The notes under the pieces: generated by a model
What the model saw: only the letters and a program-made list of their open reading frames with translations
What the model was told of the DNA's origin: nothing
Database searches by the model: none
Shown: in pieces, positions 30,965-43,998 of the stretch
How positions within the stretch are numbered: the first letter of the stretch is position 1
Layout: each line of letters opens with the position of its first letter
Sequence record: NC_106597.1
Source of the DNA: Escherichia phage BB1
Length of the DNA: 64,000 bases
Reading direction: 5' to 3' (one strand)
Position numbers and translations under genes: made by a program

Positions 30965-31181
30965 AAAATGGGAAACAAGGAAGTTCCCAGTAAAAGAGCG
31001 TAAAGTTCCTGTTTACGACACTTCGGAAAAGCTATGTAGGGTGGTACCACATAGATTAGCTGGCATCCCTAACATATCCGAGTGGTTACTTAAACAACGG
31101 AAAACAAACGTGTCTCTTCGCATCGGCTTTGAATTAGATAAAGTCTATGCTGAACTTGCTTCTTTGCTCAAGGAATCGTAA
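30948..31181 (+). CDS. hypothetical small protein (77 aa)
   Basis: Start set at MTVKNKKW with GGAGAGAT RBS; overlaps HNH 3' end in another frame. Confidence 0.45.
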   Translation: MTVKNKKWETRKFPVKERKVPVYDTSEKLCRVVPHRLAGIPNISEWLLKQRKTNVSLRIGFELDKVYAELASLLKES

Positions 31182-31189
31182 AAATTTAT

Positions 31190-31218
31190 TTGCTTTCAGG
31201 AAAATTTTTCTGTATAAT
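31190..31218 (+). promoter_or_regulatory. early promoter (TTGCTT-17-TATAAT)
   Basis: -35 31190-31195, -10 31213-31218; conserved leader attcataaatttgagagagg. Confidence 0.7.
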
Positions 31219-31249
31219 AGATTCATAAATTTGAGAGAGGAGTTTAAAT

Positions 31250-37758: not shown

Positions 37759-38645
37759 GTAGAATAACAGAACTACTTGATCTGAAAGGCATTGAATATA
37801 AAGACACAGGTGGGGACATCCTCATCTGTTGTCTCAATCCAGATCATGACGATAAACACCCAAGTTTGCGTATTGATCCTGAAACAGGTATTATGCACTG
37901 CTTGAGTTGTGGCTTCGGTAAAGGTATACCGAGCATTTACCATTATTTTAATGAGACTCAGTACCGACAGTCCCCAAGACTATCACAGGTACGTAAAAAG
38001 ATTTCAGAGATTAGGAATGGATCTACGAATCTTGCAATTCCTGAATCTGCTTACCTTTTCGAAGGTGATTTCCGAGGTATAAGTTCTAAGACCTTGAAGA
38101 AATATTTTGCTTTCCAACACCAAGCAGACTGGGAAGGCAGAATTGTATTCCCAATCACAGATGCTGTTGGACGCAATATCCTATTTTTGGGTCGTTCTAT
38201 AAACAGTTCTGCCCCTCCTAAATACCTAGTAAAACCAAAACAAGTTTCACCGCCAATTTTTCCTGTACGATATAATACTCCAGTTCTTATTCTAGTTGAA
38301 GGTATCTTTGATATGCTGAATCTAGAGGATAATGGTATAGACTATGCTTCTTGTTGCTTTGGTACACATCAGTTTACTTCAGACAACATTGCAGATAAGT
38401 TCAGTCCGTATATTATTGCTGGTGTTAAAGTTGTTGTTATCTTACTAGATAATGATGCTTCTGGTAATAAAGCTGCACAAGCACTGGCTAAGCTAATTCG
38501 TACAAAAACGCGTTTAACACCTGTAGTTGCTAACTTTCTTCTGCCTGAAGGTAAAGACCCAGGTGACTTAAATAAAGAAGAAATTGATATGTTAGCAAAA
38601 CGTATTGAAATTTTAGTTGCTGAATCGCTTAAAGATTTGGTATAA
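37755..38645 (+). CDS. DNA primase (DnaG-type: zinc-binding + Toprim)
   Basis: Zinc ribbon CCLNPDHDDKHPSLRIDPETGIMHCLSCG; Toprim motifs LVEGIFDMLNL and ILLDNDASG. Confidence 0.8.
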   Translation: MSRITELLDLKGIEYKDTGGDILICCLNPDHDDKHPSLRIDPETGIMHCLSCGFGKGIPSIYHYFNETQYRQSPRLSQVRKKISEIRNGSTNLAIPESAYLFEGDFRGISSKTLKKYFAFQHQADWEGRIVFPITDAVGRNILFLGRSINSSAPPKYLVKPKQVSPPIFPVRYNTPVLILVEGIFDMLNLEDNGIDYASCCFGTHQFTSDNIADKFSPYIIAGVKVVVILLDNDASGNKAAQALAKLIRTKTRLTPVVANFLLPEGKDPGDLNKEEIDMLAKRIEILVAESLKDLV

Positions 38646-38671
38646 TAGTCCTAAATAACTGAGGAGCTACT

Positions 38672-39001
38672 ATGGAATATGTATATATTTATGCGGATGT
38701 TCCAGTGTATGATAGTATAACACACAAAGAGGTTAAACTAGAGCGGTTTACAACACTGGAGTCCCTTAATAAACGAAAGAATTTCCATTTATTTGGTGAT
38801 CCTAAATTACCTGCATCTTATATTTACTTTAAAGTAAAAGATACAGGTCAAGAGGTATACCTAACATATGATTGGGCTGTTGTAGAAAATACTGAGCAAT
38901 CTATGAAAGCGCTAGATGCTTTTCTGCGTATAGATGAAGAATTTCGGGTACTAGAAAAGCAGCGCAATGAAATGCGTAAATTACTTCACACCTATAAATA
39001 G
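38672..39001 (+). CDS. hypothetical protein (109 aa)
   Basis: ORF with GAGGAG RBS. Confidence 0.5.
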   Translation: MEYVYIYADVPVYDSITHKEVKLERFTTLESLNKRKNFHLFGDPKLPASYIYFKVKDTGQEVYLTYDWAVVENTEQSMKALDAFLRIDEEFRVLEKQRNEMRKLLHTYK

Positions 39002-39004
39002 TAT

Positions 39005-39033
39005 TTGCTATTATCCCAATATTTTGATATAAT
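39005..39033 (+). promoter_or_regulatory. early promoter (TTGCTA-17-TATAAT) upstream of DNA polymerase
   Basis: -35 39005-39010, -10 39028-39033; leader contains inverted repeat ggtaagt...acttacc. Confidence 0.65.
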
Positions 39034-39094
39034 ATATTGGTAAGTTAGAGAAGAAACACTGAAGTTATACTTACTTACCAAGAGGAGATTAAAT

Positions 39095-41662
39095 TTGAAA
39101 ATCGCAGTAGTTGATAAAGCTCTAAACAACACTCGTTATGATAAACATTTCCAGCTATACGGCGAGGAAGTTGATGTATTCCATATGTGTAACGAGAAGT
39201 TATCTGGTCGTTTGCTTAAAAAGCACATTACTATTGGAACACCAGAAAACCCATTTGATCCTAATGATTATGATTTTGTTATACTAGTAGGTGCCGAACC
39301 TTTCCTGTACTTTGCAGGTAAGAAAGGTATTGGTGATTATACCGGTAAACGTGTAGAGTATAATGGATATGCTAACTGGATTGCGAGTATCAGCCCAGCC
39401 CAGTTACATTTTAAACCTGAAATGAAACCAGTTTTTGATGCAACAGTAGAGAATATCCACGATATTATCAATGGTCGTGAGAAGATTGCAAAAGCTGGTG
39501 ATTACCGTCCTATTACTGACCCTGATGAGGCGGAAGAATATATCAAGATGGTGTATAATATGGTTATCGGACCTGTCGCATTCGACTCCGAAACCTCAGC
39601 ACTATACTGTCGAGATGGTTATCTGCTTGGTGTTTCTATGTCTCACCAAGAATATCAGGGTGTATATATCGATTCTGATTGTCTCACAGAGGTTGCAGTA
39701 TATTATCTCCAGAAAATTCTGGATAGTGAAAACCACACTATTGTTTTTCACAACTTGAAGTTTGATATGCACTTTTATAAGTACCATCTGGGACTTGCTT
39801 TTGATAAAGCGCATAAAGAACGCAGGCTCCATGATACCATGTTGCAGCACTATGTTCTAGATGAACGTCGTGGTACTCATGGCTTGAAATCTCTAGCGAT
39901 GAAGTACACCGATATGGGTGACTATGACTTCGAACTAGATAAGTTCAAAGATGATTACTGCAAAGCACATAAAATCAAGAAAGAAGATTTCACCTATGAT
40001 TTAATTCCGTTTGATATTATGTGGCCTTACGCTGCGAAAGATACAGATGCTACCATACGTTTGCACAACTTCTTCTTACCAAAAATTGAGAAGAATGAAA
40101 AACTTTGCAGTCTGTATTACGATGTTCTAATGCCTGGTTGTGTATTCCTACAGCGTGTTGAAGATCGTGGTGTACCTATTTCTGTTGATCGTTTAAAAGA
40201 AGCTCAGTATCAGTTAACCCATAATCTGAATAAAGCCCGTGAGAAACTGTATACTTATCCAGAAGTCGTTCAGCTAGAAAAAGACCAGAACGAAGCATTT
40301 AACCCAAACTCTGTTAAGCAGCTACGTGTTCTTCTGTTTGATTATGTTGGTTTAACTCCAACAGGTAAACTGACGGATACTGGAGCAGATTCTACGGATG
40401 CAGAAGCTCTGAATGAACTGGCTACGCAGCATCCAATTGCTAAAACTCTGCTAGAGATTCGTAAGCTGACTAAGCTAATTTCTACTTATGTTGAGAAAAT
40501 TCTTCTGAGTATTGATGCAGATGGTTGCATTCGTACTGGTTTCCACGAACATATGACTACTTCTGGTCGTCTGAGTTCTTCTGGTAAACTGAACCTGCAA
40601 CAGTTACCTCGTGATGAATCTATTATCAAGGGTTGTGTAGTAGCTCCTCCTGGGTACCGTGTAATCGCGTGGGACTTAACAACTGCGGAAGTTTACTATG
40701 CTGCTGTTCTATCTGGTGATAGAAATATGCAACAGGTATTTATCAACATGAGAAATGAACCTGATAAATACCCTGACTTCCACTCTAACATCGCACACAT
40801 GGTATTTAAGCTCCAATGCGAGCCTCGTGATGTTAAAAAGTTATTCCCAGCTCTGCGTCAGGCTGCTAAGGCAATTACCTTCGGTATTTTGTATGGTTCT
40901 GGTCCGGCTAAAGTAGCTCATTCTGTTAACGAAGCTCTTCTGGAACAGGCTGCTAAGACAGGAGAACCGTTTGTTGAGTGTACTGTTGCTGATGCGAAGG
41001 ACTATATCGAAACTTACTTCGGTCAGTTCCCGCAGCTTAAGCGTTGGATTGATAAGTGCCACGATCAGATCAAGAATCATGGATTTATCTATAGTCACTT
41101 TGGTCGTAAACGTCGTCTGCATAATATCCATTCAGAAGACCGTGGCGTTCAGGGTGAAGAAATTCGTTCTGGGTTTAACGCAATCATTCAGTCTGCTTCT
41201 TCTGATAGCCTACTTTTAGGTGCTGTAGATGCAGATAATGAGATCATTTCTCTTGGCCTAGAACAAGAGATGAAGATTGTTATGCTGGTTCACGACTCCG
41301 TAGTTGCTATTGTTCGTGAGGATTTGATCGACCAATACAATGAAATCCTGATTCGTAATATTCAGAAAGACCGTGGTATTAGTATTCCTGGCTGTCCGAT
41401 TGGTATTGATTCAGATTCTGAAGCTGGAGGTTCTCGTGACTACTCTTGTGGTAAGATGAAGAAACAGCACCCATCAATCGCTTGTATTGATGATGATGAA
41501 TATACTCGTTATGTCAAGGGTGTATTACTTGATGCAGAGTTCGAGTATAAGAAACTAGCTGCAATGGATAAAGAGCATCCAGATCATAGCAAATACAAGG
41601 ATGATAAGTTTATTGCTGTATGTAAAGATTTGGATAACGTGAGAAGGATTCTCGGTGCTTAA
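39095..41662 (+). CDS. DNA polymerase, family A (Pol I-like, with 3'-5' exonuclease domain)
   Basis: Motif B RQAAKAITFGILYG, motif C VHDS, exonuclease FDSET; apparent TTG start 8 nt after AGAGGAG. Confidence 0.95.
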   Translation: MKIAVVDKALNNTRYDKHFQLYGEEVDVFHMCNEKLSGRLLKKHITIGTPENPFDPNDYDFVILVGAEPFLYFAGKKGIGDYTGKRVEYNGYANWIASISPAQLHFKPEMKPVFDATVENIHDIINGREKIAKAGDYRPITDPDEAEEYIKMVYNMVIGPVAFDSETSALYCRDGYLLGVSMSHQEYQGVYIDSDCLTEVAVYYLQKILDSENHTIVFHNLKFDMHFYKYHLGLAFDKAHKERRLHDTMLQHYVLDERRGTHGLKSLAMKYTDMGDYDFELDKFKDDYCKAHKIKKEDFTYDLIPFDIMWPYAAKDTDATIRLHNFFLPKIEKNEKLCSLYYDVLMPGCVFLQRVEDRGVPISVDRLKEAQYQLTHNLNKAREKLYTYPEVVQLEKDQNEAFNPNSVKQLRVLLFDYVGLTPTGKLTDTGADSTDAEALNELATQHPIAKTLLEIRKLTKLISTYVEKILLSIDADGCIRTGFHEHMTTSGRLSSSGKLNLQQLPRDESIIKGCVVAPPGYRVIAWDLTTAEVYYAAVLSGDRNMQQVFINMRNEPDKYPDFHSNIAHMVFKLQCEPRDVKKLFPALRQAAKAITFGILYGSGPAKVAHSVNEALLEQAAKTGEPFVECTVADAKDYIETYFGQFPQLKRWIDKCHDQIKNHGFIYSHFGRKRRLHNIHSEDRGVQGEEIRSGFNAIIQSASSDSLLLGAVDADNEIISLGLEQEMKIVMLVHDSVVAIVREDLIDQYNEILIRNIQKDRGISIPGCPIGIDSDSEAGGSRDYSCGKMKKQHPSIACIDDDEYTRYVKGVLLDAEFEYKKLAAMDKEHPDHSKYKDDKFIAVCKDLDNVRRILGA

Positions 41663-42152: not shown

Positions 42153-43501
42153 AGGTTGTTATATCTAATAAAGCCTATTTCAAGCCCGATGATGAACTTT
42201 GGGATTACTGTAGTAAGCAAACCACTTATCACATAGAGACAATGACTAGTAAATACCCTATTATGTATAAGAATAGTGGTGTTGTTGCCAAAGAGATTAA
42301 GTGGATTCCTATTACGCGTCTGGACTTACTAGATGCTAAAGGAGTAAAATACGAATTAGTCGATAAACGCACATTAGCTCCAGTAGATATACCAAAACCT
42401 AAGTTCAAGCTGCGTGAAGAAGACCAGCTCCCAATATATGAAGAGTGCGATGATACCTGTATTATTAATGGTAAGCCTGGATTTGGCAAAACTATCCTAG
42501 CTCTTGCACTTGCATATAAATTTGGCCAGAAAACTTTGGTAATTTGTACCAACACATCTATTCGTGAAATGTGGGCGGCAGAAGTTCGTAAATGGTTTGG
42601 GTTTGAACCAGGTATCATAGGTTCTGGGAAATACAATATTGATCCACCAATTGTGGTCAGTAATATTCAAACAGTGAATAAACATGCGAATAATCTTTCT
42701 AAAGTATTCGGTACTGTTATAGTTGATGAAGTTCACCATTGTGTGGCTACAACTTTCACTAACTTCCTAGAAATATCATGTGCCCGCTATAAGATTGGAC
42801 TATCCGGTACATTAAAACGAAAAGATGGTCTACAAGTTATGTTCAAAGATTTCTTTGGATATAAGATCTTTAGTCCGCCGGTTAATAATACTGTTGCACC
42901 TACAATCCATAGGTACTCCGTGCCTGTTGAGTTATCGGGTAACCAAAACGTACCATGGGCATTACGTGCTAATGATGTGTATAATCATCCTGAATATCGA
43001 GAGACTATTATAAACCTGGCGCATTTATATGTGAATATGGGGCATAAAGTGCTCATTGTAAGTGACAGAACAGAGTTGATCCAAACAGTACTAGAAGCTC
43101 TTGCACAGCGTGGTGTTACAACATACGAAATTATAGGGGCAACCCACTTGGATGACCGATTAAAAATTCAGGAAGATATAGCAAAAGGTGGACCTTGTGT
43201 ACTTGCAGCAGCTCAAAGTATCTTCTCTGAAGGTATTTCCCTTAATGAGCTGTCTTGTTTAATAATGGGAAGTCTCATTAATAATGAATCTCTAATCGAA
43301 CAGCTTGCAGGACGTGTTCAACGTATTGTCGATGGTAAACTCGACCCTATTGTTGTAGATCTAATTATGAAAGGTGGCACTGGACTAAGACAGGCTTCCG
43401 GACGTATGGCAGTATATCGTAACAACGGGTGGAAAACTATTACCATGACTCCGGAAAAAGCAGTTCAATTAGCTAAAATTGCATTTGGCAACAGCTCATA
43501 A
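42149..43501 (+). CDS. SF2 (DEAH-type) helicase
   Basis: Walker A GKPGFGKT, Walker B VIVDEVHH, C-terminal helicase motifs. Confidence 0.85.
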   Translation: MKVVISNKAYFKPDDELWDYCSKQTTYHIETMTSKYPIMYKNSGVVAKEIKWIPITRLDLLDAKGVKYELVDKRTLAPVDIPKPKFKLREEDQLPIYEECDDTCIINGKPGFGKTILALALAYKFGQKTLVICTNTSIREMWAAEVRKWFGFEPGIIGSGKYNIDPPIVVSNIQTVNKHANNLSKVFGTVIVDEVHHCVATTFTNFLEISCARYKIGLSGTLKRKDGLQVMFKDFFGYKIFSPPVNNTVAPTIHRYSVPVELSGNQNVPWALRANDVYNHPEYRETIINLAHLYVNMGHKVLIVSDRTELIQTVLEALAQRGVTTYEIIGATHLDDRLKIQEDIAKGGPCVLAAAQSIFSEGISLNELSCLIMGSLINNESLIEQLAGRVQRIVDGKLDPIVVDLIMKGGTGLRQASGRMAVYRNNGWKTITMTPEKAVQLAKIAFGNSS

Positions 43502-43513
43502 ATGATGTATAAT
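43485..43513 (+). promoter_or_regulatory. early promoter (TTGGCA-17-TATAAT) at 3' end of helicase gene
   Basis: -35 43485-43490, -10 43508-43513, followed by conserved ataaatttgagagag leader. Confidence 0.55.
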
Positions 43514-43584
43514 ATATACATAAATTTGAGAGAGAAAGTTTCGGATTGATAAGAAAGTCCGAAGCAGAAAAATAAAAATTTTAG

Positions 43585-43614
43585 TTGCTAAATTCTCTCG
43601 AAATCTAGTATAAT
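43585..43614 (+). promoter_or_regulatory. early promoter (TTGCTA-18-TATAAT)
   Basis: -35 43585-43590, -10 43609-43614. Confidence 0.6.
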
Positions 43615-43998
43615 ATATACATAAATTCGAGGAGAAAACAAAAATTAAATTCTTCGATTATGAAAAGCTATACTTACTAGCTAGAGGAAATTCCGACCTA
43701 ATTATTAAGCTATTCAAAAGAATGCTTACAGAGCCTGATGCTCACCAATTATTGGTCGGTTCTTCATTCATTTTGAATGAATCAACAATAGTTGATAATC
43801 CAAATAAATTGTCTAATAGACAACTGGCAGAATATCTAGGAATTTTAAGTCTACGAAATTATGCCGAATACAAGTTTACAAACGATCCTAGTTTGGACAT
43901 ACAATATGTTCCAGTATGGATACCACGTTTAGTAATCGACACTAACCCACTAATCGCAATTAACAAATCGAAATTAATCTTTAAAGAGGAAATAAAAT

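Follow-up and report, generated by a model that had tools for sequence, protein, structure and literature searches.

The gene for the replicative DNA polymerase of Escherichia phage BB1 (sequence record NC_106597.1) lies on the + strand at 39095..41662 of the stretch of 64,000 nucleotides (nt) that was analysed as a whole and is called the window in what follows. Its messenger is predicted to start at an early promoter, Ppol, and to carry a short leader ahead of a TTG start codon. This leader contains a three-helix RNA structure that is genuine and under selection, that occurs at no other gene in the DNA searched, and that appears not to have been described as an RNA family. It is this conserved structure that appears to be new; the start codon and the promoter were already known.

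T5 is one of the classic model phages, and its polymerase has found use as an enzyme that is processive and displaces strands. The window is DNA of a T5-like phage: the 801 nt around the leader are 99.5% identical to Escherichia phage slur09 and have matches in 437 records of T5-like phages. The gene product, T5 pol, is a family A polymerase of 855 amino acids with a 3'-5' exonuclease domain at residues 137-331 (PF01612, 1.2e-39), a polymerase domain at residues 368-760 (PF00476, 5.7e-66) and the N- and C-terminal extensions that are specific to T5. Its length and start are the same as those of YP_006950, and the T5 reference genome (NC_005859) has the same 855-residue coding sequence (CDS), with the same start codon and a promoter annotated just upstream. 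On these grounds the open reading frame (ORF) is identified as the T5 replicative DNA polymerase. Its best solved relative is the Klenow fragment (6e-50), and the Protein Data Bank holds no structure of the T5 polymerase. For the T5-like Escherichia phage SelmaRatti (MZ501103.1), the annotation describes the polymerase as a precursor with an intein.

The three-helix leader

An inverted repeat, ggtaagt...acttacc, had been pointed out in the leader by a first-pass annotation of the window, and it is present exactly as described, with GGTAAGT at 39039-45 and ACTTACC at 39073-79. It grows to 9 perfect base pairs (bp) when TT 39037-38 and AA 39080-81 are included, and 11 of 12 positions are paired over 39037-48 / 39070-81. 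This exact pattern is expected 0.01 times per window, and a perfect repeat of at least 9 bp occurs in 0.4% of shuffled 61-nt segments. Taken alone, the repeat is weak evidence of function, because the window contains 36 repeats of at least 9 bp, against 16.9 +/- 4.1 in simulations, and because the 77-nt fold (-10.7 kcal/mol, z = -1.07) is not significant. It is on account of conservation and covariation in related phages that the repeat is judged to be real.

According to that comparison, the repeat is the basal helix, P1, of a longer, covarying stem-loop of 41 nt. The element has three helices and would occupy the entire 5' untranslated region (UTR), from about the transcription start (+1) of Ppol to 2 nt before the GAGGAG core of the Shine-Dalgarno (SD) sequence. 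The 7 bp that had been described are thus exact, but they are only a part of the element, and their 5' arm lies at the predicted start of a known promoter's transcript.

All parts of the element are on the + strand. The 5' strand of P1, GGUAAGU (39039..39045), pairs with the 3' strand, ACUUACC (39073..39079); at the DNA level the helix can extend to TT 39037-38, and AA 39080-81 can extend it on the 3' side. The same 5' strand is also the Ppol version of the initial-transcribed motif of T5, (C)ATAAAT. It is followed by a 5' internal loop, UAGAG (39046..39050), which is purine-rich, SD-like and homologous to the GAGAG of standard T5 leaders. P2 is formed by AAG (39051..39053) and CUU (39070-72); the fold of the single sequence favours an alternative register of this helix with GAG 39048-50. 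P3 consists of AAC (39055..39057) and GUU (39064-66) and is capped by the apical loop ACUGAA (39058..39063), with the core YUGA at 39059-62. On the 3' side (39064..39072), the strands of P3 and P2 are separated by an internal loop, AUA (39067-69). The interval 39069-39079 reads as a tandem ACTT-ACTT-ACC, so that two registers, offset by 4 nt, would be open to the 5' arm GUAAGU (ACUUAC 39073-78 or 39069-74). Pairing at 39069-74 or 39073-78 is thus conceivable, and the second register would consume P2.

The case for this structure is comparative. Leaders were gathered from T5 and Epseptimavirus variants, Sugarlandvirus, Serratia phage Slocum, phage Eos, PR1-like phages and the Proteus Novosibvirus (Stubb). 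From an ordinary MAFFT alignment, RNAalifold recovered the three helices P1, P2 and P3, with compensatory changes in each. In alignment A3, which comprises 10 distinct leaders aligned by MAFFT and not fitted to the structure, standard pairs occupy 91.9% of the cells, as against 28-52% once the 3' strand is shifted by 1-3 columns relative to its partner. Double-sided changes are found in 9 of the 16 pairs, as against 2.9 +/- 1.1 after shuffling (none of 500 shuffles reaches 9). Four of the seven P1 pairs are changed on both sides in Stubb, and so are two basal pairs in Eos. The P2 helix AAG/CUU has become GAG/CUC in Stubb, a compensatory replacement of A-U by G-C, and a C-G pair of P3 has become U-A in the PR1-like and Stubb leaders. 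In Slocum the P3 stem reads UAAC/GUUA, and in My1-like and DU_PP_V-like leaders it reads GCC/GGC. Throughout the variation of P3 (AAC/GUU, AAU/AUU, UAAC/GUUA, GAAAC/GUUUU, GCC/GGC) the YUGA core is unchanged, and it is present in every hairpin-bearing lineage of enterobacterial phages examined; a conserved apical loop on a covarying stem has the appearance of a specific binding site. Furthermore, G-U pairs have arisen from several A-to-G substitutions on the 3' side, and since such changes pair only as + strand RNA, the element is to be regarded as a structure of the + strand RNA. The pattern of substitutions indicates that this RNA structure has been maintained across Tequintavirus, Epseptimavirus, Sugarlandvirus, Slocum, Eos, the PR1-like phages and Novosibvirus.

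In T5, in Sugarlandvirus and also in Stubb, the helix base lies 13 nt ahead of the start codon. My1-like and DU_PP_V-like leaders (L026 and L032) contain a reduced form, with GCC-CUGAUA-GGC replacing AAC-ACUGAA-GUU, which on refolding retains a short basal helix adjoining the SD. The My1-like helix adjoins the SD though it is not at the 5' end of the transcript. Scans of IMG/VR with the N-termini of the Stubb and PR1-like polymerases brought no additional lineages, and a metagenome scan returned mostly distant clades that do not have the element.

The leader is far better conserved than synonymous positions. Its identity relative to the window was compared with the identity at 4-fold sites over the first 300 pol codons: the values are 0.97 against 0.59-0.71 in Epseptimavirus, 0.85 against 0.39 in Sugarlandvirus, 0.78 against 0.48 in PR1-like phages and 0.67 against 0.51 in Stubb. 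The 64-nt leader is at least 99% identical in 199 of 526 phage records, compared with 1 of 448 for a 64-nt coding control. This conservation indicates that the unpaired nucleotides of the element are under purifying selection as well. With a covariance model (R1), the leader at 39034-97 reaches 89 bits, and no other site in the 64-kb window or at T5 positions 40-90 kb does better than E = 0.3; because only this single copy is found, the element is considered specific to pol. No family of Rfam 15, searched with 38900-39250 at E up to 10, matches: the best scores are 13.7-15.4 bits (E 2.9-7), with gathering thresholds of 65-100, and amount to noise.

Promoter and start codon

Ppol is a sigma-70 early promoter at 39005..39033 (+), with a -35 element TTGCTA (39005-10), a spacer of 17 nt and a -10 element TATAAT (39028-33). 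It matches the consensus at 10 of 12 positions, and TG at 39025-26 makes it an extended -10 promoter. The discriminator ATATT (39034..39038, +) is a hallmark of T5 early promoters, all of which carry it (Klimuk 2020, PMC7472727), and the predicted start follows immediately. All the features given for these promoters in the same study (-35 TTGCT-, a spacer of 17-18 nt, TATAAT and ATATT) are found at Ppol of the window, and the homologous promoter is annotated in the T5 genome NC_005859, where Ppol is listed. Transcripts from Ppol have been detected in vivo by primer extension; they are short-lived, appearing at 20 min and being gone after 30 min (Klimuk 2020, PMC7472727). From the span given in the T5 annotation and from comparison with PN25, the +1 is predicted to be G39039 or G39040, the sixth or seventh nucleotide after the -10. 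Because of this predicted position, the 5' arm of the repeat would constitute the first nucleotides of the pol mRNA.

The beginning of the pol leader is related to a module that recurs in the window. The motif TATAATATATT is present in 18 copies, as against 5.3 expected, and most copies are followed by CATAAATTTGAGAG..., the standard module of transcribed region and leader in T5. The sequence GGTAAGTTAGAGA of Ppol is a variant of the T5 promoter motif CATAAATTTGAGA, which follows most TATAATATATT sites. The pol leader and the PN25 module (TATAAT-AGATTC-ATAAATTTGAGAGAGGAGTTTAAAT-ATG) have the same -10, discriminator and transcribed-region motif, and also almost identical SD and spacer, the SD of pol being nearly identical to that of the PN25 leader GAGAGGAGTTTAAAT-ATG. 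What distinguishes the pol leader is the presence of about 28 extra nt (39053-39080), which provide both the P2/P3 hairpin and a complementary strand for the 5' end, and the start at TTG, whereas the standard PN25 module has ATG.

The SD AAGAGGAG (39080..39087, +) directly adjoins the hairpin and is followed by a 7-nt spacer, AUUAAAU (39088-94), and by the TTG initiation codon of the polymerase (39095..39097, +), which is assigned from the position of the SD, the frame, the N-terminal alignment and existing annotation. The upstream in-frame stop is TAA 39041-43. There is no ATG, GTG or TTG between this stop and 39095, and the next in-frame ATG downstream is codon 31 (39185). The N-terminal sequence MKIAVVDK aligns from residue 1-2 across 11 clades, with identities as low as about 45%. 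Among the 10 aligned relatives, six have ATG at the codon homologous to TTG, and the other four start 1-4 codons upstream. TTG itself is kept in all 33 T5/Epseptimavirus loci sampled from IMG/VR; in the PR1-like lineage there is CTA at the homologous codon and TTG three codons upstream. The equivalent of TTG 39095 is annotated as the pol start in both slur09 and the T5 reference genome. In the curated T5 annotation (50 kb, 57 CDSs), 50 genes start with ATG, 4 with GTG and 3 with TTG. The earlier claim that TTG 39095 is the only plausible start behind the SD is thus confirmed by the frame, the N-terminal alignment and the slur09/T5 annotation. Together with the start codon counts, these data lead us to take TTG as the true pol start, uncommon but not unique, and already on record. 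It is worth keeping in expression constructs and in annotation pipelines.

The first-pass annotation had also coupled the TTG with the hairpin as parts of a single arrangement, and this part of it fails in the relatives. In the gathered leaders, TTG is the start in the T5/Epseptimavirus variants and, three codons upstream, in the PR1-like phages; Sugarlandvirus, Slocum, Eos and Stubb each have ATG. Altogether, six hairpin-bearing groups (Sugarlandvirus, Slocum, Eos, Novosibvirus, My1-like and DU_PP_V-like) keep the hairpin with an ATG start, and 3 of the 57 T5 CDSs use TTG. Since most hairpin-bearing relatives use ATG, as does gene 43 of T4, the TTG is best regarded as separate from the hairpin. 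It may represent an independent, lineage-specific down-tuning of translation that lies outside the conserved element.

The T5 polymerase record M24354, from 1989, puts the start at an out-of-frame ATG. Compared with window 39213-39222, positions 160-170 of M24354.1 contain a 1-nt insertion (GCTCAAAAAAGC vs GCT-TAAAAAGC), about 43 codons into the gene; this insertion, a sequencing error, explains both the wrong ATG start and the shorter protein of that record. A metagenome contig of a 99%-identical T5-like phage (L100, CYGL01000004.1) has ...ATTAAATTTAGAAAATC... at 385-405 of the locus, replacing ...ATTAAATTTGAAAATC.... The extra A converts the TTG start into an in-frame TAG, leaving no start codon, and is probably an assembly error.

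Possible functions of the leader

We tentatively favour the view that the leader is a gene-specific, post-transcriptional element of the operator type, situated next to the ribosome-binding site (RBS). It is favoured because the loop and the unpaired nucleotides are conserved on a covarying stem and because the base of the helix stays beside the SD. A trans-acting factor would recognise the YUGA loop and the internal loops. As the helix ends at the SD, the bound factor would compete with 30S binding and could in this way set the output of polymerase from a very strong early promoter. For an mRNA starting at 39039, the GAG core of the SD is predicted to be unpaired with a probability above 0.9; the SD would therefore be accessible in the free RNA, and repression would depend on the binding of a factor. 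A dedicated brake on polymerase synthesis would be biologically sensible, given that the early promoters of T5 rank with the strongest known. In addition, and not to the exclusion of such a role, P1 would pair the first nucleotides of the Ppol transcript and might shield the 5' end from 5'-end-dependent decay. With these comparisons, the 7-bp repeat has become a defined 41-nt RNA element with helices, a loop motif and natural compensatory variants.

By analogy with gp43 of T4, the polymerase itself is the obvious candidate for the repressor, and that it is the specific binding partner is a doubtful proposition drawn from this analogy. If the polymerase were the ligand, autogenous translational control of replicases would have evolved twice, in unrelated polymerase families. 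The wider scenario, in which family A polymerases of the T5 type repress their own translation via the YUGA hairpin, in convergence with the family B enzyme gp43, and in which TTG is a second brake in T5, Epseptimavirus and the PR1-like phages, is speculative and rather unlikely.

The likeness to T4 was in fact proposed by the first-pass annotation, which took a weak start codon combined with a hairpin to be the gp43 architecture. In this form the comparison does not stand, as T4-type gene 43 starts with ATG. What stands is that the structure is genuine and that its position is operator-like; the TTG is a separate matter, the hairpin is different and the repressor in T4 is a family B polymerase. 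In T4 gene 43, the operator bound by gp43 is a hairpin of 16-18 nt whose loop reads -UAAC- (or UAAA) (PMC3014915). The T4-type leader, as read here, runs TATAAT-atatca-AGAGCCTAATAACTCGGGCT-ataaact-AAGGA-atatct-ATG, and its hairpin is AGCC-UAAUAACUC-GGCU. In both T4/RB69 and T5, we are dealing with a gene-specific leader hairpin of a phage replicative polymerase gene, and in both the sequence of the loop is conserved while the stem varies (PMC3014915). The order of elements is shared as well: -10, a few nt (about 7 in T4), hairpin, SD and start. Like the T4-type operator, the T5 leader structure reaches the RBS, given that P1 ends at 39079 and that the AA of AAGAGGAG can extend the helix. On the other hand, the T4 operator has a hairpin of 16-18 nt with a UAAC loop and, in addition, sequence that overlaps the RBS, whereas the T5 element measures 41 nt and has three helices and a YUGA loop. 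The polymerases belong to family B in T4 and to family A (PF00476, PF01612) in T5, and the genes start with ATG and TTG, respectively. Binding and repression are demonstrated for T4, while the T5 element is known here from the comparison of sequences. The T5 element is thus outside the operator family of T4 gp43, and by analogy it may work in a similar manner.

The conserved pairing could also serve other ends. One explanation holds that the element is a 5'-terminal stabiliser, with P1 blocking the access of RppH and RNase E and so prolonging the life of the pol mRNA with no factor in trans. Stabilisers of the ompA type have a stem that begins within 0-2 nt of the 5' end of the transcript, and need neither a specific loop sequence nor a fixed relation to the SD; 5'-terminal stem-loops of this kind, as in the 5' UTR of E. 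coli ompA, were reportedly described by Emory, Bouvet and Belasco in 1992. As in that type, the stem in T5 would pair the first nucleotides of the transcript, and its position would be set by the promoter and not by the coding sequence. The 5' arm starts 3-4 nt after the -10 in T5-type, Sugarlandvirus, Novosibvirus, Eos, Slocum and Vibrio-phage leaders, and within 2-4 nt of it, one nt earlier than in the other lineages, in the distant freshwater relative L109; this offset is constant despite different arm sequences and loop lengths of 4 to 31 nt. Given the predicted +1, the stem would begin at nucleotide 1 of the transcript, P1 having a probability of about 0.99 with +1 at G39039 and of about 0.3 at G39040. 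In the Vibrio phages, moreover, the hairpin stays with the promoter, with the SD about 45 nt away, and RNase E is known to drive the decay of phage mRNA (PMC3014915). However, a stabiliser needs a stem only, yet the conservation of the loops and internal loops far exceeds that of synonymous sites, with YUGA kept. Unlike in the ompA type, the helix ends at the SD, and the My1-like helix is not terminal, beginning about 5 nt into the transcript and yet adjoining the SD. It also has to be considered that the repeat takes in 2-3 nt upstream of the probable +1, that with +1 at G39040 the stem is reduced to 6 bp and mostly unfolded, and that Ppol transcripts are short-lived, being seen at 20 min but no longer after 30 min (PMC7472727). 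Stabilisation, though less likely than an operator, is the main rival explanation of the element. Even less probable is an action on RNA that reads through from the helicase-primase genes, where the hairpin would terminate or attenuate transcription, serve for processing by an RNase, or insulate the two units as a 3'-end hairpin. The full repeat, including the nucleotides upstream of +1, exists only on such RNA, and its basal pairs covary in Eos; the T5 primase stop codon lies inside the -10, no terminator is annotated in T5 between the K28 promoters and pol, and two Vibrio-phage lineages have a 13-pair hairpin with a T-run, scored as an intrinsic terminator, at the equivalent position. While these Vibrio-phage relatives fit promoter-proximal intrinsic terminators at the same offset, the T5-type hairpin lacks a T-run, its stem is long and interrupted and its G+C content low, it is followed by AAGAGGAG, and it is not detected in a scan of 38000-40000, which found 0 terminator-like sites. 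Its 13-16 or so interrupted pairs are short for RNase III, to judge from known substrates, and where a cassette put 390 nt between primase and hairpin, the hairpin stayed with pol.

The view that there is no RNA function at all, the promoter region and the RBS being conserved and the complementarity fortuitous, draws on the relation of GGTAAGTTAGAGA to the motif CATAAATTTGAGA, of which it is a variant and which follows most TATAATATATT sites, on the modest fold z of -1.07 and on the 36 repeats of at least 9 bp in the window, about half of which are expected by chance. It is disfavoured by the covariation, with its compensatory double changes in 9 of 16 pairs (0 of 500 shuffles) and the collapse of pairing on sliding. 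Moreover, 39055-39072 is outside the promoter motif and the RBS, yet conserved and covarying, and other T5 promoters in the window have no complementary strand; a fortuitous origin is accordingly very improbable. The probability is smallest for a leader ORF or alternative start, in which GAGAAG (39048-53) and CUG/UUG in the loop (39059-61) would initiate a mini-ORF or a 12-codon extension of pol. YUG is indeed kept in the loop, and a purine-rich tract precedes it by 4-6 nt (AGGAGG-N4-TTG in Stubb); CTG 39059-61 is in the pol frame in T5-type phages, with no stop before TTG, and in PR1-like phages and Sugarlandvirus its frame closes with TAA just before the SD. But CUG is a very poor initiator in E. 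coli, and frame and length differ between the lineages, where the ORF would be fused in frame with pol, be 7 codons long, or comprise 16-17 codons and overlap pol. No amino-acid conservation is seen that exceeds the constraint of the RNA helix, and the N-terminus aligns at MKIAVV across clades. A leader peptide or CTG start was thus considered unlikely, the frames being inconsistent between lineages, and so was an RNase III site, for which the helix seems too short and too interrupted. A dimeric DNA operator was rejected, the spacing of the arms being 27, 31 or 14 nt and the changes of the G-U type pairing only as + strand RNA. An operator of the RegA type, shared by several genes, was rejected in view of the single copy found by the covariance model.

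Several observations weigh against the operator-type element that we prefer. The covariation comes from only about seven independent lineages; the hairpin was not found in the distant relatives Pogseptimavirus, D423 and the freshwater clades, and the terminator-like hairpin of the Vibrio-phage relatives is far (about 45 nt) from the SD. The fold energy quoted above is not significant, and the stability of P1 is marginal, as the difference between the two possible +1 positions makes clear. Part of the conservation has other causes, since the first 15-20 nt of the leader overlap the conserved transcribed-region motif of T5 promoters and the last 15 nt are SD and spacer. On the upstream side, the repeat reaches 2 nt beyond the likely +1, with pairs that covary in Eos, and this fits read-through transcripts or an unusual start better than an element strictly specific to Ppol. 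Finally, the literature searched holds no report of post-transcriptional control of T5 pol, and neither there nor in this analysis is there anything that shows the T5 polymerase binding its own mRNA.

Inserted cassette, other promoters and distant relatives

A cassette at 38647..39033 (+), made up of a leader, ORF109 and a fresh -35/-10, is inserted between the ancestral -10 of Ppol and the pol leader. It comprises 387 nt and is sited exactly at the ancestral -10 (TATAAT 38641-46, overlapping the primase stop codon), so that the pol leader is left intact. ORF109 (38672..39001, +) encodes 109 amino acids with no Pfam match. The new promoter is TTGCTA-17-TATAAT, and within 38641-39033 of the window ORF109 has come under the old promoter and pol under the new one. 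This region is covered by only 49 of the 437 T5-like records.

Promoters of the T5 type are numerous in the window, at 31173-31240 (+) and 14 other sites, the textbook PN25 at 31213 included. Most of them share the module of transcribed region and leader CATAAATTTGAGAGAGGAG...ATG. At 43468-43660 (+) there are tandem promoters about 100 nt apart, which are P31A and P31B of the T5 annotation. The first of them is followed by a strong hairpin, TTTCGGATT...AGTCCGAAG (-14 kcal/mol), with no obvious ORF, and may yield a short structured transcript.

Among more distant relatives of T5 pol, different arrangements are found around the promoter. The Vibrio phages L060 (Thalassavirus GRLPWR, 326-365) and L183 (a related contig, 309-352) have the 13-pair hairpin with a T-run that is scored as an intrinsic terminator. 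It lies 3-4 nt downstream of a pol promoter (TTGCAA or TTGCTA, 17-nt spacer, TGnTATAAT), and the sequences of its arms are entirely different in the two lineages. It is possible that this hairpin is an attenuator, or a terminator of the primase unit that overlaps the pol promoter. In a large freshwater and marine clade (L111, L112, L114, L116, L118, L119, L124, L129, L132, L135, L146, L147, L157 and others), a palindrome, GATAC-gcTATAATaaa-GTATC, surrounds the -10 of pol some 30-60 nt upstream of the gene, and the leader is very short. This palindrome has the look of an operator in the DNA, not of a hairpin in the RNA. The freshwater contig L109 (Ga0114982_1007717, 44% identity) carries a hairpin, ACACTT-accg-AAGTGT, right after the -10 (locus 340-400), and independently combines this hairpin with a TTG start behind AGGAG.

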